Positions 4,911 to 17,861 of a DNA stretch of 64,000 nucleotides are shown one piece after another. The notes beneath the pieces were generated by a model that did no database searches, was not told where the DNA came from, and saw only the letters and a list, made by a program, of their open reading frames with translations. This DNA comes from Bacilli bacterium. GTDB lineage: Bacteria > Bacillota_I > Bacilli_A > ML615J-28 > CAG-698. The position numbers and the translations under genes are program-made. Numbering within the stretch: the first letter of the stretch is position 1; every line of letters starts with the position of its first letter. The stretch lies in the NCBI GenBank assembly GCA_031553555.1, contig JAVBLL010000002.1, positions 17,738 through 81,737 on the forward strand, given 5' to 3'.

Positions 4911-6212
4911 ATGAGAACTGTTGATATTATTACTAAAAAAAGACAAGGTTATGCATTGACAAATGAGGAAATCCATTTTGTAATTGCTGGATATGTAAAT
5001 GGAGATATTCCTGACTATCAAATGAGTGCTTTATTAATGACCATTTGTTTTAATGGATTAAATAGCGAAGAACAAGTAGCATTAACCAAAGAAATGCTAG
5101 AAAGCGGAGAACAAATAGACCTATCACCGGTTAAGGGGATTTGTGTGGATAAACACTCAACAGGTGGGGTTGGAGATAAAACAACGCTGGTAGTGGCACC
5201 AATACTAGCTGCTTGTGGTTTAAAAGTAGCGAAGATGAGCGGAAGAGGACTTGGACATACTGGTGGAACTTTAGATAAATTGGAATCAATTCCTGGATTT
5301 TCTATCAATATAAAGAGTGAAGATTTTTTTAAGCAAGTAGAAGAGATCTCATTAGCTGTCATTGGACAAACAGCCAACATTACCCCAGCAGATAAAAAAT
5401 TATATGCACTTCGTGATGTTACTGGAACAGTTGATTCCGTTGGGCTTATTGCTGGATCAATAATGTCTAAAAAACTTGCCAGTGGTGCTAAATCAATTTT
5501 ACTAGATGTAAAAGTTGGTGATGGAGCTTTTATGAAAACCTTAGATGATGCTTACGTTTTAGCAAACGCTATGGTTGATATTGGTAAATCGTACAATCGT
5601 GATATGGTAGCAATACTGACCAATATGGATGAGCCACTTGGAAATATGGTTGGTAATAGTATAGAAGTAATAGAAGCCATTGAAACTTTAAAAGGCAAAG
5701 GGCCAAAAACATTTGAATTATTTTGCTATGAGTTAGTTAGTGAATTATTATTAGCAACAAACACAGTAAATAATAAAGAAGATGCTTTTAAATTGATTGA
5801 AGAAAAGATAAATAATGGTATTGCTTTAGAAAAATTAAAACAAATGATTTCATATCAACATGGAGATACAAATGTTTTAGATGACTATTCATTATTTCCT
5901 CAAGCTAAATACAAGGTTCTAGTAAAATCTACTAAAGTCGGTTATGTTAAAAGTCTTAAAGCTTTAGAAATAGGCTTAAGTGCAATGATGCTAGGAGCTG
6001 GCAGGGAAAGTAAAGATGATAAAATCGATTTGGCAGTGGGTGTAGAGGTTCTAAAAAAAGTTGGATCCTATATTAATACAGATGAACCAATTGCTATCCT
6101 TTATTCCAATGGACGTAACCAACAAAATGCATATGATAAAGTCTTAAATGCATTTGAAATTGTTGATGAAATAATTGAACCACGTCCTATCGTTTTAGGT
6201 ATTGTGAAATAA
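4911..6212 (+). CDS. pdp: pyrimidine-nucleoside (thymidine) phosphorylase
   Basis: 433 aa with KHSTGGVGDKTTL, SGRGLGHTGGTLDKLE and the C-terminal alpha/beta domain. Extended -10 TGgTATAAT upstream. Confidence 0.85.
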   Translation: MRTVDIITKKRQGYALTNEEIHFVIAGYVNGDIPDYQMSALLMTICFNGLNSEEQVALTKEMLESGEQIDLSPVKGICVDKHSTGGVGDKTTLVVAPILAACGLKVAKMSGRGLGHTGGTLDKLESIPGFSINIKSEDFFKQVEEISLAVIGQTANITPADKKLYALRDVTGTVDSVGLIAGSIMSKKLASGAKSILLDVKVGDGAFMKTLDDAYVLANAMVDIGKSYNRDMVAILTNMDEPLGNMVGNSIEVIEAIETLKGKGPKTFELFCYELVSELLLATNTVNNKEDAFKLIEEKINNGIALEKLKQMISYQHGDTNVLDDYSLFPQAKYKVLVKSTKVGYVKSLKALEIGLSAMMLGAGRESKDDKIDLAVGVEVLKKVGSYINTDEPIAILYSNGRNQQNAYDKVLNAFEIVDEIIEPRPIVLGIVK

Positions 6213-6266
6213 TAAATTTTACTTGCTTTTTTATGAATTATATAGTAAAATAAGTAAGTATAAATT

Positions 6267-6351
6267 GCCACTGTGTTGAAACAGGTAGACAAACTTGACT
6301 CAAAATCAAGCGCTGAAAGGCGTGCCGGTTCGAATCCGGCCAGTGGCACCA
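6267..6351 (+). tRNA. tRNA-Leu (anticodon CAA), class II with long variable arm, CCA encoded
   Basis: Cloverleaf read by hand. Acceptor GCCACTG/CAGTGGC, 3-bp D stem, anticodon stem CTTGA/TCAAG with loop CTCAAAA (anticodon CAA), 13-nt variable arm, T-arm GCCGG-TTCGAAT-CCGGC, discriminator A then CCA. Confidence 0.9.
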
Positions 6352-6363
6352 TAAGATGATTAT

Positions 6364-6397
6364 AGGTCTGACACAGTTGTGTCAGACCTATTTTATT
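6364..6397 (+). terminator. intrinsic terminator after tRNA-Leu
   Basis: 12-bp stem aggtctgacaca/tgtgtcagacct with a 2-nt loop, followed by attttatttg. Confidence 0.8.
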
Positions 6398-6619
6398 TGC
6401 ATTTTTAGCCTAAAATAACCGAATTCCCAGAGCTTTCGTTTTTTGCATCATTATCTATATTCTTAGGGCTGATTCGTCGAAAGTCAAAGGATCTTTGTTA
6501 GTTTTTTACCTTATTATAAATCTTAAGCAAGCGACAAATTGTTTCTAAAATAAAATCCATCCTCTCTTTTTATCAAGAAAAAACAATCTATTTAAATTCC
6601 TTCAAAACTATAATTATTT

Positions 6620-7792
6620 TTAGTTATTTGGTAATTTCCCACAATATTCAAATATTAAGTCAAGTTTACTATCAATATTTGCCTTCGCAATTTCGGTAAG
6701 ACGCAAATGTGATTTCTGGTGATGTACTACGTACGGGTTCTTGCCTGAATCTTGTGTCGCTGCATAAAAATATCGTCCTAAGTCGTCAATCATTGCTTTA
6801 ACTAATATCCCATTTCCTATTGTAGTATCAATATGTTTAAAATCACGCACTTTGCAGTAGTATGAATATTTATCCATCCAAGGATATTCTAATTTCATTG
6901 TTTGGTCAGCTTCTTGAGCAGTGCTATCGAATATACCACAACCAACAATGTGTTGAGTGGGCTTGCCTCTTTCATCTATGCTCACAACAGCCATGTAGAA
7001 CTGTTCTCCTAACCTAATGCTCGGCATGCCTTTTTTAAATGGAAATGCAGTAATCATTTGGCCTTGCCAAATCGTAGGCTTATATCTCTCTGATGGTTTT
7101 GATCTACTATCAGCAGATTCCTCAAATTTTAACCAAATTCTATTTATAGAATGTGATAATGGCATTAATGATTGCGGTGCAGTATTTTGAGCTGATGTAG
7201 AAATAGGAGAACTATGCACTTTAACGGTTGACGGTGGCTCTGCACCCCATTTCTCAGTAGGCTCATATGGTTCTTCAAAGGGCTTTTCATTTTGAACTTT
7301 ATTTTTAACCTTGTCTATCATTTCGTCTATTCGGGATGCCAAGATCTCAAAACTTGGATTTGTTATTCGATATAAATTCTGAAAGAATTCAATAAGCTCA
7401 CGAACCAACTGTGGATCTTCCTGAATAAACAATGATAATTCATTATTATAATGAAAACCACCAGATGTAAAATTAGCAGAACCAACGATTGCAGAAGTAT
7501 CATCAAAAATGTAAAGTTTTGTATGAAGTTTTTTTAATGCATACAAACCGATATTTGCATTTTTTAAATCTCTCAGTCCTTCAATACAACTTACTCCCTT
7601 GTAAAAATCACTATCATAAAAGCGTGTGATTACATCAACTTGTATAGACTGATTTAACAGTTTCGTTTTACATAATAAATCTGTCATCTCCTTTCCCAAG
7701 AAAGGAGATATGATTTTTATACTGCTATTTACAGAAGCAAAAAGATTCGTTATGATTTGAAAATGATTATTTGAAACAACAGAAATATACAT
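6620..7792 (-). CDS. PLD/HKD-superfamily nuclease-like protein with uncharacterised ~200 aa C-terminal domain
   Basis: 390 aa. One HxK(x4)D motif plus a GSxN motif (residues 90-109: HTKLYIFDDTSAIVGSANFT) after an ~85 aa N-terminal region. An acidic/proline linker follows, then an aromatic-rich C-terminal domain with no motif I recognise. Own promoter and RBS (gaggtg 8 nt before ATG). Confidence 0.6.
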   Translation of the reverse strand: MYISVVSNNHFQIITNLFASVNSSIKIISPFLGKEMTDLLCKTKLLNQSIQVDVITRFYDSDFYKGVSCIEGLRDLKNANIGLYALKKLHTKLYIFDDTSAIVGSANFTSGGFHYNNELSLFIQEDPQLVRELIEFFQNLYRITNPSFEILASRIDEMIDKVKNKVQNEKPFEEPYEPTEKWGAEPPSTVKVHSSPISTSAQNTAPQSLMPLSHSINRIWLKFEESADSRSKPSERYKPTIWQGQMITAFPFKKGMPSIRLGEQFYMAVVSIDERGKPTQHIVGCGIFDSTAQEADQTMKLEYPWMDKYSYYCKVRDFKHIDTTIGNGILVKAMIDDLGRYFYAATQDSGKNPYVVHHQKSHLRLTEIAKANIDSKLDLIFEYCGKLPNN

Positions 7793-7810
7793 CTATATGC
7801 ACCTCGACAA

Positions 7811-7839
7811 AATTGTATCAAAAAACTATACTTTTGTCA
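7811..7839 (-). promoter_or_regulatory. sigma-A-type promoter for the PLD-nuclease gene
   Basis: On the minus strand: TTGACA - 17 nt - TACAAT, about 20 nt upstream of the RBS/ATG at 7792. Confidence 0.6.
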
Positions 7840-7987
7840 AATTAATAGCATAGTTTTCATCACTCTCACTTTTTCTTTCCTCAAATCCCTTGAGATTTTT
7901 AATTGCCTTGTCTATTAACCGCAGAGACTTGACGCTACTAATTTTATATCAACGGTTTTAATTGTAATAATTGAATTTAAAACATAG

Positions 7988-8272
7988 TTTGGATATATTA
8001 GAAGTGATATTTTGTTGATAGCATATACAGAACGTTTTTTAAAGTCCTTCGATAAACTATCTAAAAATGAACAAGAGTTGTTTAAAAATAAAATCGATAT
8101 ATTTATTAGAAATAACCTTCACCCATTTTTAAAAACTAGCAAAATTTAAGGGAATAAAGATTAATATGAGTCTATCATTGATATGGATATAAGGATTATT
8201 TGGTTTTATGAAAATGATGAGATAATTGTATTAATTGATATTGGACATCATAATATTTTAAATAGGTATTAG
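7988..8272 (+). pseudogene. RelE/ParE-superfamily type II toxin relic; two in-frame TAA stops, no cognate antitoxin
   Basis: Single frame reads ...IAYTERFLKSFDKLSKNEQELFKNKIDIFIRNNLHPFLKTSKI*GNKD*YESIIDMDIRIIWFYENDEIIVLIDIGHHNILNRY*. TAA codons at 8147 and 8162 interrupt an otherwise typical RelE/YoeB-like sequence (HPFL..K, YRIIY-like, IGHR-like C-terminus). No ATG start. Confidence 0.6.
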
Positions 8273-8326
8273 AATATCAGAAAAAGTAGGTATACCAATA
8301 TGATTTTTGAGGATTTCAAGACAACT

Positions 8327-8358
8327 ACATTACATTAATTGATGTAATGTTTTTAAAA
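8327..8358 (+). terminator. intrinsic terminator closing the island before lplA
   Basis: 9-bp perfect stem acattacat/atgtaatgt with a 6-nt loop, followed by ttttaaaatttt. Confidence 0.6.
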
Positions 8359-8408
8359 TTTTCAAAATGTATTTAATAATTTGTAAAAATATGGTATGAT
8401 ATATACAT

Positions 8409-9401
8409 ATGAAAAATATTGATTTGAGATGCCTAGGAAAACAGGAAATATCATTTTATTTGGGGCTTGAAGAATATCTGCTAAGGCACCTGGAGGAAGA
8501 TATTTTTTTCTTATGGAATTTAAATCCCTCTGTTGTTATTGGTAGAAATCAGCTTATTGATGGAGAAGTTAATACTTCATATGCTGAAGAAAAAGGTGTC
8601 AAAATTTATAGACGCCCAAGTGGCGGAGGAGCAATTTATGCTGATAGTGGTTGCTTTATGTTTACTTTTATTACAAAAGAGAAAGATAAAGAGTTAATTT
8701 TTAAAAACTATTTAGGGATGATTATAAACGCTCTCAAGGAACTTGGAATAGATGCTTATTTTTCAGGTCGAAATGATATGTTGGTAAATGGTAAAAAATT
8801 TTCTGGTAATGCCATGTATACAAACGAGCATGGATCTGTTCTACATGGAACTTTTTTATATGATACTGATTTAATTGAACTAGTCAATATAATTACGCCA
8901 GATAATCAAAAGTTGCTTACAAAGGGTATTAAGAGTGTAAATGAGAGAGTTATAAATTTGAAAGAGTTTTTAAATCTTAGTAAGGAAGAATTAATGAATT
9001 ATCTTATTGATAATATCAGCGAAACAAAACAATTATTAACTAATGATGAATTAACAGAAATTAATTTAATTAAGAAGAAATTTGATTCCTATGAATGGGT
9101 TTATGGAAAAAACCCTAAGTATACTTTTAAAAATGATAAAAGATTTTTATGGGGTCAATTAATAGTTTTTGTTGATATTAAAAATGATATTGTTCAAGAA
9201 ATGAATTTAAAAGGTGATTTTTTTGCTATTAAGGAAATAGATAATTTTTGTAATAAATTTAGAAAAGTTCCTTTTGTTAGAGAATCTTTTCAGGAAATAA
9301 CTAATAAATATAATGTCAATGAGTATATTATGAATTGTTCAAACGAGGATTTTAATTTAATGTTTTTTGGAGGAAAAGATGAAGAAAACAATACTTTATG
9401 A
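8409..9401 (+). CDS. lplA: lipoate--protein ligase A
   Basis: N-terminus ...WNLNPSVVIGRNQ...YRRPSGGGAIYAD...KKFSGNA..., typical LplA. An extended -10 (TGgTATGAT, 8392-8400) ends 8 nt before the ATG and there is no SD, so probably leaderless. Confidence 0.85.
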   Translation: MKNIDLRCLGKQEISFYLGLEEYLLRHLEEDIFFLWNLNPSVVIGRNQLIDGEVNTSYAEEKGVKIYRRPSGGGAIYADSGCFMFTFITKEKDKELIFKNYLGMIINALKELGIDAYFSGRNDMLVNGKKFSGNAMYTNEHGSVLHGTFLYDTDLIELVNIITPDNQKLLTKGIKSVNERVINLKEFLNLSKEELMNYLIDNISETKQLLTNDELTEINLIKKKFDSYEWVYGKNPKYTFKNDKRFLWGQLIVFVDIKNDIVQEMNLKGDFFAIKEIDNFCNKFRKVPFVRESFQEITNKYNVNEYIMNCSNEDFNLMFFGGKDEENNTL

Positions 9402-12169: not shown

Positions 12170-13592
12170 ATTAATATTTGAAGTCTCAAAACCTGGTCGA
12201 ATTGGTTACAATTTACCAAAAAATCATATAGGGCAATATGAAATGCCTCAGGAGCTACAAAGAAAGGCACCACTGGAGCTTCCAGAAGTGACAGAACTAG
12301 ATATAGTTCGTCATTACACAAAATTGTCACTAAAGAATTTTGGAGTTGATCAAGGATTTTATCCACTTGGTTCTTGTACAATGAAATATAATCCTAAAAT
12401 TAATGAAGAATTATCCAGTCTTGATAGTTTTAGTGCGATTCATCCATTACAGCCAATTGAAAGCACACAAGGATTACTTCAGATTTACTATGAACTTTCT
12501 CAAATGTTGTCAGCAATTACAGGTATGAGTGAATTCACCTTAAATCCTTTCGCAGGGGCTCATGGTGAATTAGTTGGATTAATGATCATGAAAGAATATC
12601 ATTTACGAAGAAATGATTTACTAAGAACAAAAGTTATTGTTCCAACGTCTGCTCATGGAACTAACCCTGCTAGTGTTACACTATGTGGAATGGATATTGT
12701 AGAAGTACCAGCAACAGCTGATGGTATGGTTGATATTGAGCAATTAAAGTTAGTATTGAATAATGAAGTTGCTGGAATAATGTTGACAAATCCTAATACA
12801 CTTGGTATTTTTGAAAAAGACATTATGACAATTTCAAAGCTTGCTCATGATAATGGAAGCTTGCTATATTATGATGGTGCTAATTTGAATGCTATATTAG
12901 GAATATCTAGACCCGCTGATATGGGGTTTGATATTATGCATATAAACCTTCACAAAACATTTGCTGCCCCACATGGTGGTGGTGGTCCTGGATCAGGAAC
13001 AGTCGGAGTTGTTTCAAAACTGGTTGATTTATTACCTAATCCACGTGTTATAAAAACTGGTGAAAACTATAATTTCTTGGAAGGAAATACTATCGGCAGA
13101 GTTAGTGCCTTTTATGGTAATACTACTGTTATATTAAAATCATATTTTTATTTACTTAGCTTAGGAAAAGAGAACATAAAAAATGTAGCCCGTTTTGCAA
13201 CTTTAAATGCTAATTATATAAAAGAGTCATTAAAAGATAAATATTTACTACCTATTAAAGGATTGTGTAAACATGAAGTCGTATTTGATGGATTAATTAG
13301 TCAGAAGGCCACAACATTAGATGTAGCAAAACGACTTCTTGACTATGGGTATCATCCACCAACAATATATTTTCCATTATTATTTCATCAATCATTAATG
13401 ATTGAACCAACAGAATGTGAATCAAAAGAAACCCTTGATGAATTTATTGAAGTGATGAATAAGATTGCTATAGAAGCAGAAGAAAATTCTGAGCTATTAT
13501 TTACAGCTCCACACTATACACCCGTAAGAAGATTAGATGAAGTCAAAGCTGCGAGAAATCCAATTTTAAAATTTAAGGATATTAATGACTAA
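12153..13592 (+). CDS. gcvPB: glycine dehydrogenase (decarboxylating) subunit 2
   Basis: 479 aa with a PLP-lysine region HINLHKTFAAPHGGGGPG. Overlaps the gcvPA stop. Confidence 0.85.
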   Translation: MMMYNKLIFEVSKPGRIGYNLPKNHIGQYEMPQELQRKAPLELPEVTELDIVRHYTKLSLKNFGVDQGFYPLGSCTMKYNPKINEELSSLDSFSAIHPLQPIESTQGLLQIYYELSQMLSAITGMSEFTLNPFAGAHGELVGLMIMKEYHLRRNDLLRTKVIVPTSAHGTNPASVTLCGMDIVEVPATADGMVDIEQLKLVLNNEVAGIMLTNPNTLGIFEKDIMTISKLAHDNGSLLYYDGANLNAILGISRPADMGFDIMHINLHKTFAAPHGGGGPGSGTVGVVSKLVDLLPNPRVIKTGENYNFLEGNTIGRVSAFYGNTTVILKSYFYLLSLGKENIKNVARFATLNANYIKESLKDKYLLPIKGLCKHEVVFDGLISQKATTLDVAKRLLDYGYHPPTIYFPLLFHQSLMIEPTECESKETLDEFIEVMNKIAIEAEENSELLFTAPHYTPVRRLDEVKAARNPILKFKDIND

Positions 13593-14910
13593 TATGATAG
13601 ATATTATTATAATTGGAGCAGGTCCAGGAGGATATGAACTGGCATTAGAAGCGGCGAATTCTGGATTAAGTATAGTGCTAATTGAAAAAAATGAAGTTGG
13701 AGGGACATGTCTTAATCATGGTTGTATCCCAACCAAAACTTATTATCATGATGCAAAACTTTTTAAAAAGTCTAAAGAGTTAAAAGTATTACAAAGTAAT
13801 GCAATATTAGATTTTGAATTGACAAAAGAACGTAAGAAGAAAGTTGTTGCTGATTTAGTAACTGGAATTAAATTTTCATTGGATAAGGCCAAAGTTAAAT
13901 TAATATATGGCACTGCAAGTCTAGTCGACCGTTATCATGTAAAGGTTGAAAATGAGATTTATGAAGCAAAATATATTGTTATAGCAACCGGATCAAAATC
14001 TAAAATAATCCCTATTAAGGGAATTGATGCAAAAAACGTGATTACTTCAGATGAACTTCTTGATATTAGTGATATCCCATCTAAGTTAGTAGTCATTGGT
14101 GGTGGCGTTATAGGCATTGAAATGGCGACAATCTTTAAAACTTTTAATAGTGATGTCACGATTATTGAATCTGCAAGTACTATTCTACCATTTTTTGATA
14201 AGGAAATTATTAAAAGATTTCAAGCATATTTGAAAACTTATGGTATAAAACTTATTTTAAAAACTGAAATAAAAGAAATCTTTGATAACAAAATCATTTA
14301 TGATAATAATGGAACTATAAATGAAATTGATTTTGATAAGATATTATTGGCAGTAGGACGAAAGCCTAATATAGATAACCTAGAGTTAGAAAATTGTGCT
14401 ATTGATATTGATAAGGGTGCCATTAAAGTTAATACTAATTTCCAGACTAATATTGATAATATATATGCAATTGGTGATGTGAATAATAAAATGATGCTAG
14501 CGCACTATGCAACATATAGTGGGTATCGCGTATTGAACCATATTTTAGGGCGCAACGACAAAATCAATTTTGATATTGTTCCTTCGTGTGTTTTCACAAT
14601 ACCAGAAATTGCTATGGTTGGTTTGACAGAGGATGAATGTATTCTCCAAAATAAAGAATATCGAACAATAAAAACATTGTATCGTTCAAATGGTAAAGCA
14701 ATGACAATGAATGAACTAGATGGCTTTATAAAGTTAATTATTGAGAATAATTATATTATAGGTGCTCATATATTGGGTGAAGAAGCCAATATTCTAATTC
14801 ATGAAATTATGGTATTGATTAATAATAAAATATCAATTAATGATGCAAAAGATTATATTCACGCTCACCCAACTCTTAGTGAAATAATAGCGACATCATT
14901 AAGAGATTAG
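13585..14910 (+). CDS. lpd: dihydrolipoyl dehydrogenase (E3 / glycine-cleavage L protein)
   Basis: FAD motif IIIIGAGPGGY, redox disulfide GGTCLNHGCIPTK, NAD motif VVIGGGVIGIEMA, C-terminal HAHPTLSE. Confidence 0.85.
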   Translation: MTNMIDIIIIGAGPGGYELALEAANSGLSIVLIEKNEVGGTCLNHGCIPTKTYYHDAKLFKKSKELKVLQSNAILDFELTKERKKKVVADLVTGIKFSLDKAKVKLIYGTASLVDRYHVKVENEIYEAKYIVIATGSKSKIIPIKGIDAKNVITSDELLDISDIPSKLVVIGGGVIGIEMATIFKTFNSDVTIIESASTILPFFDKEIIKRFQAYLKTYGIKLILKTEIKEIFDNKIIYDNNGTINEIDFDKILLAVGRKPNIDNLELENCAIDIDKGAIKVNTNFQTNIDNIYAIGDVNNKMMLAHYATYSGYRVLNHILGRNDKINFDIVPSCVFTIPEIAMVGLTEDECILQNKEYRTIKTLYRSNGKAMTMNELDGFIKLIIENNYIIGAHILGEEANILIHEIMVLINNKISINDAKDYIHAHPTLSEIIATSLRD

Positions 14911-14973
14911 TTGTTAAATTATAAATATATAAATTCATTAGAGATTTTAATATCATAAATGATATTGCACTGT

Positions 14974-15008
14974 TAGATGGTTATATAAATAACCATCTTT
15001 TTATTTGC
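14974..15008 (+). terminator. intrinsic terminator after the gcv-lpd operon
   Basis: Stem agatggttat/ataaccatct followed by ttttatttg. Confidence 0.6.
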
Positions 15009-15111
15009 TTACTTAGGATATATGGCAAAATTCAAAAATAAAAATTTATTAAAATAGTTAGAAAAAAAGTCAATTATTTTGTTATACTATATATGAAAGG
15101 TAATGATTATT

Positions 15112-15984
15112 ATGAAAAAAACATTTATACTTATAATAATTATATTTAGTGTATTTCTTATGGCTTGCAATCAAGAATATAGTGGTAAAGAAATAAGTTA
15201 TATGGAATATACAAGAATAGATTATAATGGTGGTTATAGAAACCAAACGAAAATTGACTTAAATACCAATGAAGTTCTTGTAAGAGGTTATTTGGATGAA
15301 GAAGTTGACTATGAAGTTATACATAATTTTGATGAGACAAATGAAAAAGAATTTATTAATAAAATCTTTCAATCAGGATTGTTTGCTTTAAAAGATGAAT
15401 ACAAAAACACTATTCCAATAATAGATGGTGGTGGTTGGAATTTGATTATTCAATATACTGATGGAAGCACAAAAATATCAAAAGGAAGTAATGCTAGTCC
15501 TAGTAAAATATTCAAGGAAGCAGATTATGCATTTTATAATTTATATGGAGATGACTTCTTTGGTTATCTAGATAGTTCTTATAAAAATCCTCCAAGCATA
15601 GATATAGCAATAAAATATCAAGATGGAAATAATAATATAAGTGATGGAAGTGGATTGAAAGTTTCTAATTACACTTGGAATAAAAGGAAAGTTGATAATA
15701 TAAATAATATTGACTTTGCTAAAGAAAATCAAAAATATGAATATGATAGTAATATCGAATACAAATTTGTTTTATGGACGGCAAATTATGAATATAAGTT
15801 TAATAAAATGATTATTAAATCATATGATATAAATGGTTATGATGAAAAAACAATTATTGAATGTAAATGGTTTAAACAAAAGGAATTTAATTTAGAATAT
15901 GATAGAATATATATTATAACAATGGAATTTGATTATGGAACTTGCGAATATCCTTTTGCTACAAAAATTAATAAACTAGGTTGA
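15112..15984 (+). CDS. lipoprotein, unknown function (paralogue of 17352..17861)
   Basis: Lipoprotein signal MKKTFILIIIIFSVFLMAC (lipobox LMAC). The central ~100 aa aligns to the second lipoprotein (KIFQSGLFALKDEYKN..IIDGGGWNLIIQYTDGST vs KISNHGIYNLKEDYQP..ITDGSSWRLIITFSDGTT). Confidence 0.7.
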   Translation: MKKTFILIIIIFSVFLMACNQEYSGKEISYMEYTRIDYNGGYRNQTKIDLNTNEVLVRGYLDEEVDYEVIHNFDETNEKEFINKIFQSGLFALKDEYKNTIPIIDGGGWNLIIQYTDGSTKISKGSNASPSKIFKEADYAFYNLYGDDFFGYLDSSYKNPPSIDIAIKYQDGNNNISDGSGLKVSNYTWNKRKVDNINNIDFAKENQKYEYDSNIEYKFVLWTANYEYKFNKMIIKSYDINGYDEKTIIECKWFKQKEFNLEYDRIYIITMEFDYGTCEYPFATKINKLG

Positions 15985-16017
15985 AATCCAGTGCATAAAT
16001 TCTCATAAAATTTAATA

Positions 16018-16050
16018 AGAGAAATTAGTAAAAACTAATTTCTCTTTTTG
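16018..16050 (+). terminator. intrinsic terminator
   Basis: 11-bp stem agagaaattag/ctaatttctct with a 6-nt loop, then ttttg. Confidence 0.7.
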
Positions 16051-16158
16051 GTTGAACTATTCAACTAAAAATTCAATATAATAGTTATTTCATTATTAGT
16101 AATAATACTATATAATGATAGTGTAAATGGTCATTTACAAGAAAAAGGAGTGAAAATA

Positions 16159-17229
16159 ATGAATATTAAAATAGCATCACAAATTAAATCATTAAGAGAA
16201 TCAAAAAATGTCTCGCAAACAAAACTTGCTGAGTTTTTAAATATCTCTTTTCAGTCAGTATCAAAATGGGAAAATGGTCTTGCATATCCAGATATCACTT
16301 TGCTACCAAAACTTGCTGGTTTTCTAGGAGTTACAGTGGATGAATTATTAGGTGTTTCAGAGATAGAGAAAAGCCAAAGATATGAAGAGTATGAGAATAA
16401 AGCTGAAGAATTATATAAAAATGGGTTAGTAAAAGAACATTTGATTTTATGGAAAGAAGCATATGATGAACTACCTAATAATTATGATGTAAAACAATAT
16501 TTAATGTGTGCATATTCTGACATAGATAAACAAAAATACTTTAATGAAATCATTGAACTAGCAATGGATATTTACCATAATGATATAAATATGTATAATA
16601 AAGCACAAGCTATAAGAATTATTTCTAATACTTATTTTGAAAACAATGATAAAGAAAAAGCAATTCAATGGGCTAATAAATCAGTCCCCATTTACTGCTC
16701 TGCCGATATAATTAGTTATCAATTTTATGAAGGCGAAGAATTAATGAGAAGCATTCATTATAATGTTTATTGGTTTTTAGAAGAATTATGGCATATGACT
16801 TCCCACATGGTATATGGAGAGAAGACTTTTATGGATTTGAAATTCAAACAAGATTATTTAAAAAATACTCTAAGTATATATGAGTCAGTATATCCAAATT
16901 GTGATACATTTTTTAATACATATGACCATTATTATTGTTTATATGGTGATATAGCAAAATTTGGCGTATCGCTTGGTAACAGCGAAGACGAAGTAAAATA
17001 TTATTTAGAAAAAGCTTTGGAATGTGCAGAAAAATCTAGTAATTTAAAAGGACATTTATTGAAGAGTCCGCTTATGTATAATAAATATGTTGAAGATGCT
17101 CCAAATACAGACAAACGATTGGTTATTGTTAATCAAATGAGAAAGTTTTTAAATTTTACTGAGTTTGATATATATCGAAATAAAGAATGGTTTCAACAAA
17201 TAAATAAAAAACTATCATCTTTAAATTAA
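16159..17229 (+). CDS. XRE-family HTH transcriptional regulator with C-terminal TPR-like domain (RNPP/Rgg-like architecture)
   Basis: N-terminal HTH_XRE (LRESKNVSQTKLAEFLNISFQSVSKWENGLAYPDITLL), then ~290 aa of helical repeats. AAGGAG RBS before the ATG at 16159. Confidence 0.75.
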   Translation: MNIKIASQIKSLRESKNVSQTKLAEFLNISFQSVSKWENGLAYPDITLLPKLAGFLGVTVDELLGVSEIEKSQRYEEYENKAEELYKNGLVKEHLILWKEAYDELPNNYDVKQYLMCAYSDIDKQKYFNEIIELAMDIYHNDINMYNKAQAIRIISNTYFENNDKEKAIQWANKSVPIYCSADIISYQFYEGEELMRSIHYNVYWFLEELWHMTSHMVYGEKTFMDLKFKQDYLKNTLSIYESVYPNCDTFFNTYDHYYCLYGDIAKFGVSLGNSEDEVKYYLEKALECAEKSSNLKGHLLKSPLMYNKYVEDAPNTDKRLVIVNQMRKFLNFTEFDIYRNKEWFQQINKKLSSLN

Positions 17230-17351
17230 TTGAATAACTTTGCTTTTTGAAAGGTATACTATTATTTCTACTTATGGTATAATATATTTAGTTAGAATTT
17301 TTTCAAAAAAAAAGATGATGAATATTGTTATATATGCAAGGAGATTTATTT

Positions 17352-17861
17352 ATGAAAACCAATCGTTATTATTTATTTGTTTTACTATTATTGTTTTCTA
17401 CTGTCTTAATTGGATGTGAATATAATGGACCTTATAAGGGAAATGAAGTCACCCAGATTTATTATTGTCTTCAGGGATCTGAATGGCCTGTAAAATATGA
17501 GAAATCATATGATTTTACTAATCTAACTTATTCAACAAAAACTTGTGATGATCCATATAGTCATTATAAGGAAGATTTTATAGAACATGAATTTGAAATC
17601 GTAGCCACGTTCACAAAGGAAGAGGCAGACAATTTTTTAAAAAAGATTAGTAATCATGGAATATATAATTTAAAAGAAGATTATCAGCCTTTTGCTATGA
17701 TTACAGATGGTTCCTCTTGGCGTTTGATTATTACTTTTAGTGATGGTACAACATTTAACAGTGGTGGATATATGAAATCACCTTCGCAAGCTACAACAAT
17801 TAATAAAGATTCACAGGATTTTATTGGTGTTGATTTATTTACTATTTATCGAAATTATTAG
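17352..17861 (+). CDS. lipoprotein, unknown function (paralogue of 15112..15984)
   Basis: Signal MKTNRYYLFVLLLLFSTVLIGC (lipobox LIGC), AAGGAG RBS, and a shared domain with the upstream lipoprotein. Confidence 0.7.
   Translation: MKTNRYYLFVLLLLFSTVLIGCEYNGPYKGNEVTQIYYCLQGSEWPVKYEKSYDFTNLTYSTKTCDDPYSHYKEDFIEHEFEIVATFTKEEADNFLKKISNHGIYNLKEDYQPFAMITDGSSWRLIITFSDGTTFNSGGYMKSPSQATTINKDSQDFIGVDLFTIYRNY

Follow-up and report, generated by a model that had tools for sequence, protein, structure and literature searches.

A predicted PLD-EVE nuclease in probable defence cargo at the 3' edge of a tRNA-Leu(CAA) gene

We describe a small block of DNA that lies between the genes pdp and lplA in a 64,000-nt, AT-rich stretch from the genome of an uncultured Bacilli bacterium (hereafter the window; all positions are counted from its first letter). 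The block directly follows a tRNA-Leu(CAA) gene, and its sole long open reading frame (ORF) encodes a 390-aa protein that, judging from a modelled structure, is a PLD-EVE fusion nuclease. The block probably represents acquired, variable cargo of a rare, patchily distributed defence type. We also lean towards a fuller account, in which it would be an accessory defence islet housed in a tRNA-flank hotspot and the nuclease a homodimeric, modification-dependent PLD-EVE enzyme. This account draws on the anatomy of the interval, the domain folds of the protein, its intact motif, its stand-alone status, the defence-island contexts of its homologues and the strain-level variability of the equivalent site in relatives.

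From left to right, the interval contains tRNA-Leu(CAA), a strong terminator, a spacer, the minus-strand nuclease ORF, a toxin pseudogene, an A-T hairpin and lplA. A preliminary description of this DNA had listed the same anatomy (tRNA, terminator, nuclease, toxin relic, terminator), and every part was found in its place. The nuclease gene is one of only six minus-strand genes among the 57 in the window.

The block encodes a predicted PLD-EVE nuclease

The intact nuclease gene (6620-7792, minus strand) was characterized from the ORF list, Pfam, PADLOC, its homologues and a predicted structure. An N-terminal PLD/HKD nuclease domain (residues 1-170; 7283-7792) is followed by a linker of low model confidence (residues 171-217; 7142-7282) and by a C-terminal EVE-like domain of the PUA superfamily (residues 218-390; 6623-7141), all on the minus strand. 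Pfam detected PLDc_2 over residues 17-140 (E 8e-15) as well as RE_NgoFVII, both in the N-terminal part only. In a set of 13 family members, and then in one of 34, the HKD motif, L89-H90-T-K92-LYIFD97-x6-G104-S105-A-N107, shows little or no variation; it lies within a PLD fold and has the HxK(x)4D(x)6GSxN spacing of the PLD/HKD superfamily. In the C-terminal half, W220/L221/K222/F223, R230, I282, G284 and G385 are invariant or nearly so in the same two sets of proteins. As modelled, a PUA-superfamily reader is fused to a nuclease, the arrangement found in the class of EVE/PUA-nuclease fusions.

The gene also appears to have its own expression signals (7800-7840, minus strand), the promoter coming from a promoter scan and the Shine-Dalgarno sequence from reading the DNA. 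A -35 element TTGACA (7840-7835) and an extended -10 element TGaTACAAT (7820-7812), separated by a 17-nt spacer, form the top sigma-70 match in the region (11/12 with the TG), and a candidate Shine-Dalgarno sequence, GAGGTG (7805-7800), stands 7 nt ahead of the ATG. In the preliminary description the nuclease was what an eroding island had retained; an intact two-domain defence gene with an apparent promoter of its own does not look like a passive survivor.

Several points weigh against this picture of the protein. The EVE assignment of the C-terminal domain comes from the predicted structure alone: Pfam EVE and ASCH models matched none of the 34 family members, and domain-profile searches gave no PDB sequence match for this domain. 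No characterised member of this PLD-EVE family was found in the literature. Modified RNA is also among the ligands of EVE, YTH and ASCH domains, so the substrate of the nuclease could be RNA. Finally, the predicted transcription start falls on or beside the Shine-Dalgarno sequence, which makes the promoter call uncertain.

The N-terminal domain by itself would admit a different identity. The protein could be an orphan component, either a stray DrmC subunit of a DISARM system or a type II enzyme of the BfiI/NgoAVII kind that stands without its methyltransferase, in both cases inactive or toxic. Indeed, the PADLOC DrmC model PDLC02599 (387 positions) matched the protein over its full length (residues 11-389, E 8e-24), RE_NgoFVII fell on the N-terminal domain, and the structural neighbours of that domain include BfiI and NgoAVII; a Foldseek search of the PDB with the full model was dominated by PLD matches. 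The NCBIfam model DISARM_DrmC_I, however, reached only 31 bits against a cutoff of 133, and the DISARM identity was rejected when no DrmA or DrmB was detected among the 24 ORFs of the window that were scanned. Like BfiI and NgoAVII, the window enzyme is of similar size, has a two-domain plan and carries an N-terminal single-HKD nuclease that is expected to dimerise; unlike them, it has no methyltransferase nearby, and its C-terminal domain is EVE-like rather than B3-like, structure comparison giving no B3 match. The BfiI-like identity was rejected on this difference of fold. All considered, an orphan component is scarcely probable. PDLC02599 probably represents PLD-EVE proteins rather than canonical DrmC, and it could cause DISARM to be called wrongly. 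The other PADLOC DrmC profiles matched the nuclease in the HKD region only.

Partners were sought among the ORFs of the window: those of at least 100 aa were listed throughout and 24 of them scanned, the ORFs within about 5 kb on each side were identified, and ten selected further ORFs, mostly the largest downstream, were scanned with PADLOC. The identified ORFs near the gene, out to about 5 kb on each side, included no methyltransferase, DrmA, DrmB or other defence partner, and PADLOC returned nothing specific on the ten selected ORFs. The immediate neighbours of the nuclease gene are the tRNA, pdp, the RelE relic and lplA. Within the ORFs scanned, then, the gene stands alone, with no cognate methyltransferase.

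Homologues of the nuclease lie in defence islands

A word-index search of 5.8 billion proteins gave 13 matches to the nuclease, the best of them other than the protein itself being 51% identical. An exhaustive profile search recovered 263 representative clusters (50% identity) at E<=1e-30, and many of the best 150 matches listed aligned along almost the whole of the profile. We looked at the loci of three homologues. The closest (P0002) has a tyrosine integrase 2.3 kb away. A second (P0010), seen on three independent contigs, is flanked by a DndB-like gene and by a type I restriction-modification (RM) system with an hsdS shufflon, and a third (P0013) lies near an Mrr_cat nuclease, a helix-turn-helix (HTH) regulator and an integrase. 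No tRNA occurs at any of the three loci, and none of the three homologues adjoins DrmA or DrmB. Because its members occur in defence islands and near integrases, the PLD-EVE family behaves as mobile defence cargo.

A subgroup of PLD-EVE proteins of 512-561 aa (P0003-P0006, P0254, P0255 and P0259) bears an additional C-terminal extension of 130-170 aa; one member of the subgroup matches Pfam PF14088.

The tRNA-Leu(CAA) flank varies between strains of related bacteria

The 3' flank of tRNA-Leu(CAA) is a hotspot in this lineage. The closest relatives, which have a pdp of about 75-76% identity by protein search, include human-gut metagenome-assembled genomes, some of them from Hadza samples, and tRNA-Leu(CAA) is conserved downstream of pdp in five of these loci (L083-L087). 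Where strains share 12.8 kb at 98.7-99.0% identity, homology stops at the last base of the tRNA. In the empty state (L083 and L084) the tRNA runs straight into a terminator and a HisKA_7TM operon. The same place in L085 is taken up by 4.72 kb of extra DNA (12816-17535), with small ORFs and genes for an HTH protein and an HNH endonuclease, before the L084 sequence resumes. In L086 and L095 the tRNA is followed by a type I RM island 8.5 kb or more in length. Ten sampled places of one relative species contained both occupied alleles. The nuclease gene was missing from the tRNA flank in all relatives examined.

In the window, tRNA-Leu(CAA) is the left anchor of the variable block. Positions 6223-6354, comprising the tRNA and 44 nt upstream of it, are 89% identical to the relatives; against L086 (12685-12865) the similarity extends over 6223-6401 at 86% identity and ends past the terminator hairpin.

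The relatives at about 75% identity share the layout His_Phos (minus strand), pdp, GH5 cellulase, tRNA-Leu(CAA). The cellulase gene occupies 11302-12675 in L083-L087, and in its stead the window has 54 nt (6213-6266) between pdp and the tRNA; either the relatives gained the gene or the lineage of the window lost it. A second variable spot lies upstream of pdp (L083 372-7321 compared with L084), where L083 has a Metallophos/AAA_23 (SbcCD-like) pair and two AAA_14/DUF4143 ATPase genes and L084 has ABC transporter and HSP90 genes.

Origin of the block

The preliminary description had interpreted the block as the eroded remnant of a small genomic island that had lost its mobility genes. Spelt out, this would be the stump of an island or prophage, mobilised by an integrase and inserted at the 3' end of tRNA-Leu(CAA), from which the integrase and the right attachment site were later deleted. 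One half of the interpretation is supported, namely variable, acquired cargo at a tRNA-flank hotspot; the other is not, as neither an integrase remnant nor an att repeat came to light. The absence of an integrase from the block, already remarked in that description, was confirmed: the block has no further ORF, four integrases taken from related loci had no tblastn match in the window, and six-frame reading together with tblastn revealed no integrase relic in 6392-6619 or 7793-8011. Searches for a right attachment site likewise agreed with its reported absence, whether by k-mers, with mismatches or with gaps. With up to three mismatches, the 3'-terminal 25-mer and 16-mer of the tRNA matched only themselves. 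No k-mer of at least 11 nt from the 3' half of the tRNA and the 40 nt downstream recurred in the window, and between 6330-6400 and 6410-8500 the best gapped local alignment was at chance level (34% of nulls were as good). A similarity of the form ACCA..ATGATT near 8295 was considered as an attachment site and rejected, being at chance level in the null test of the gapped alignment. Moreover, the whole block had no similarity to plasmid or phage records in blastn searches at "distant" sensitivity.

What speaks for an eroded integrase island is that the block lies directly 3' of a tRNA, that toxin-antitoxin debris is typical of mobile elements, that homologues of the nuclease are found elsewhere near tyrosine integrases and that the equivalent site is variable in relatives. 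The relatives themselves, however, argue in the other direction. Exact k-mers of at least 11 nt revealed no tRNA-derived repeat at the junctions in five relatives, the 4.7-kb insert of L085 has no integrase, and the sole integrase of the L086 island sits among hsdS genes, a location that points to a shufflon recombinase. Since their occupied sites carry no island integrase, an eroded integrase island is no better supported than an exchange through flanking homology or an enzyme acting in trans. We consider it rather unlikely, and the cargo may have lacked an integrase from the start.

A contrary reading is that this lineage has long carried the nuclease and the toxin relic by vertical descent, and that the look of an island arises from poor sampling of relatives and from rearrangement around lplA. 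Related genomes carrying the same nuclease at this locus would have spoken for ancestry; none was found, an outcome on the side of the island, with the caveat that the nearest pdp is only about 75% identical. The closest homologue of the nuclease, at 51% identity, lies in an unrelated context, the family is scattered in defence islands, and the gene runs on the strand opposite to its neighbours, all of which disagree with vertical residence.

Other observations favour it, and to that extent weigh against acquisition. The composition of the nuclease gene is mildly off, which in itself would speak weakly for acquisition, and stays within two standard deviations of the genes of the window (z +1.9 for G+C at third codon positions, z -1.8 for codon-usage log-likelihood); G+C content is 29.9% for the window and 30.3% for the whole block. 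No genome with an empty site or of the same species was present in the collections, the nearest pdp being 76% identical. No relative shows synteny with the right flank, lplA-gcv, and a rearrangement could have joined lplA to an older block: the lplA-gcvTHP-lpd operon is kept as a unit in relatives, whose lplA is up to 55% identical, and its left neighbour differs in each of those at 50-55% identity. Genes of the relatives' right flank are absent from the window. On balance vertical residence is distinctly unlikely, and we infer that the block was acquired horizontally in this genome.

The pdp-tRNA-lplA arrangement itself was found in no sequenced relative by pdp and lplA protein searches and eight context look-ups, so that the boundaries of the insertion cannot be drawn. 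No pdp in the protein index, JGI included, was more than 76% and less than 100% identical, and a scan of genome contigs gave a best pdp match of 68%, with no tRNA after pdp. The contig of the window itself has a single occurrence in NCBI and another in a Logan assembly.

A candidate type IV restriction enzyme in a defence hotspot

In the account that we favour, positions ~6400-8350 would be a short accessory segment of defence type, lodged in a hotspot of recombination whose start is the 3' edge of tRNA-Leu(CAA). The proteins Nuc and BfiI have one HKD motif per chain and form their active site across a dimer; by analogy, the window nuclease would act as a homodimer with a shared active site. 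Its EVE-like domain, on the model of VcaM4I and other EVE/PUA-nuclease fusions, would flip a modified base (5-methylcytosine, 5-hydroxymethylcytosine or a related base) into its pocket, and this flipping would license cleavage of modified foreign DNA, which is type IV restriction. Dimeric action, modification dependence and expression are all put forward here as predictions. A type IV enzyme needs no partner methyltransferase, which would explain why the gene stands alone. The RelE/ParE toxin would have lost its antitoxin and then been silenced by two nonsense mutations, and the tRNA terminator on the left and the A-T hairpin on the right may keep the block transcriptionally apart from the tRNA and from lplA-gcv.

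Enzymes of this kind have been anticipated. EVE-PLDc fusions are listed among putative type IV restriction enzymes by Bell, Wolf and Koonin 2020 (PMC7641849), VcaM4I is an EVE-HNH enzyme that has been characterised (PMC7897488), and SauUSI shows a PLD nuclease at work in modification-dependent restriction (PMC6765204). Compared with VcaM4I-type fusions, the catalytic domain of the window enzyme is PLD/HKD and stands at the N-terminus, and its reader has diverged too far to be recognised by the Pfam EVE model. SauUSI is a protein of more than 800 aa, PLD nuclease - helicase - DUF3427, ATP-dependent, in which DUF3427 reads the modification, whereas the window protein has 390 aa, no ATPase and an EVE-like reader. 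As for the locus, it resembles tRNA-flanking islands in lying directly 3' of a tRNA, in its defence and toxin-antitoxin cargo and in the strain-level presence and absence seen at the equivalent site in relatives. It differs from them in having neither an integrase nor tRNA-derived direct repeats and in measuring only ~2 kb. In the relatives, too, the cargo comes without tRNA-derived att repeats or a stand-alone island integrase. PLD-EVE fusions and tRNA-flank defence hotspots are both already known kinds, and what we see here is a defence hotspot of the usual sort rather than a novel type of element. The comparison adds one more case of defence cargo gathering at a tRNA flank and changes no concept.

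For annotation, we suggest that the ORF be named a PLD-EVE, putative type IV modification-dependent restriction endonuclease, rather than a generic PLD nuclease or "DrmC", and that the RelE-like frame be marked as a pseudogene. Because the family is moderately large and apparently uncharacterised, this compact 390-aa member, whose motif is intact, would be a sensible choice for enzymology; epigenomics can make good use of new modification-dependent cutters.

Toxin relic, terminators and spacer

The toxin pseudogene (8012-8272, plus strand) belongs to the RelE/ParE/YafQ family and is interrupted by in-frame TAA codons at 8147-8149 and 8162-8164. The NCBIfam model RelE_StbE (TIGR02385) scored 27.9 bits, a borderline value equal to its cutoff, and the Pfam scores were below theirs (YafQ 22.6 vs 30; ParE 19.3 vs 23). 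In tblastn comparison, toxins from Firmicute plasmids covered 88-100% of the relic at 29-40% identity (best E 2e-11). At the level of the family the relic is thus a full-length, if borderline, match to RelE/ParE type II toxins. Intact plasmid homologues adjoin AbrB/MazE-type antitoxin genes, whereas no antitoxin-like frame was found by six-frame reading and tblastn in the 219 nt upstream of the relic (7793-8011), which hold the predicted nuclease promoter. With two in-frame stops and no adjacent antitoxin gene, the relic does not qualify as an intact toxin; the nonsense codons would fit the inactivation expected of a toxin that has no antitoxin.

The left edge of the interval is formed by pdp (4911-6212, plus strand; Pfam Glycos_transf_3/PYNP_C) and by tRNA-Leu(CAA) (6267-6351, plus strand), a class II tRNA with an encoded CCA that was identified by ARAGORN and by the Rfam tRNA model (56.2 bits). 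The intrinsic terminator of the tRNA (6362-6400, plus strand) consists of a 13-bp G+C-containing hairpin (6362-6391) and a T-run; the folding free energy of the hairpin, -22.7 kcal/mol (z -6.1), was equalled by none of 200 shuffles. An imperfect 18-nt direct repeat, ATTTTAYTTGCWTTTTTA (16/18), at 6216-6233 and 6390-6407 flanks the tRNA and the terminator. It probably reflects chance in AT-rich DNA or the T-tracts of promoter and terminator.

Next comes a spacer (6401-6619), downstream of the nuclease stop codon, which appeared non-coding in ORF, Rfam and homology scans. Its slightly longer form, 6392-6619 (228 nt), has no ORF in any of six frames, and 6401-6619 has no homology to relatives, plasmids or phages. 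When small RNAs were sought in the spacers with Rfam at E<=1, the tRNA was the sole match.

At the right edge, ahead of lplA (8409-9401, plus strand; Pfam), an A-T-rich hairpin with TTTTT (8327-8355, plus strand) has a 10-bp stem of nearly all A-T pairs (8327-8350). Its stability exceeds that of 200 out of 200 shuffles (z -3.95), and it fails the G+C rule of the terminator scan. The second terminator of the preliminary description is therefore present as a hairpin, but it is weaker than the first and was missed by the rule-based scan; it is possibly a weak terminator that insulates the lplA promoter.

Cassettes in the insert of a relative

The insert at L085 12816-17535, which also occurs in L096-L102, is made of tandem cassettes. 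A unit of about 270 nt, with a terminator-like hairpin, a T-run, a second hairpin and ACTACGGAACGA(A/T)AG repeats, recurs at L085 14840-15110 and 16320-16549 with 87-90% identity. The left edge of the L086 RM island (L086 12815-13011) shows kinship with the unit, and a 65% copy of it stands in shared core DNA at L085 17737-17851. The first cassette ends with the HNH gene, and a 75% copy of the start of that gene is found at 17308-17368, before the right junction. The L085 cassettes open with hairpins similar to the window terminator at 6362-6391. This organisation suggests homing- or accretion-type stacking without an integrase.

A broader version of this idea, to which we give a slender chance, would make the 3' edge of tRNA-Leu(CAA), in this uncultured gut Bacilli lineage, a dedicated site of cassette accretion that works with neither an integrase in cis nor tRNA-derived att repeats. 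Each of the successive L085 cassettes begins with a copy of the ~270-nt "tRNA-flank" unit (hairpin, T-run, second hairpin, ACGGAACGA repeats), and two of them end in a whole or fragmentary HNH endonuclease gene, which suggests that stacking of defence cargo is driven by a homing endonuclease or by a recombinase in trans. The PLD-EVE block of the window might then be one such cassette, reduced to its leading hairpin.

Away from the block, positions 16150-17229 of the window encode a 359-aa protein with an N-terminal Cro/C1 HTH domain; its weak PADLOC matches (RmrA, capH and control protein) probably reflect this generic domain only.

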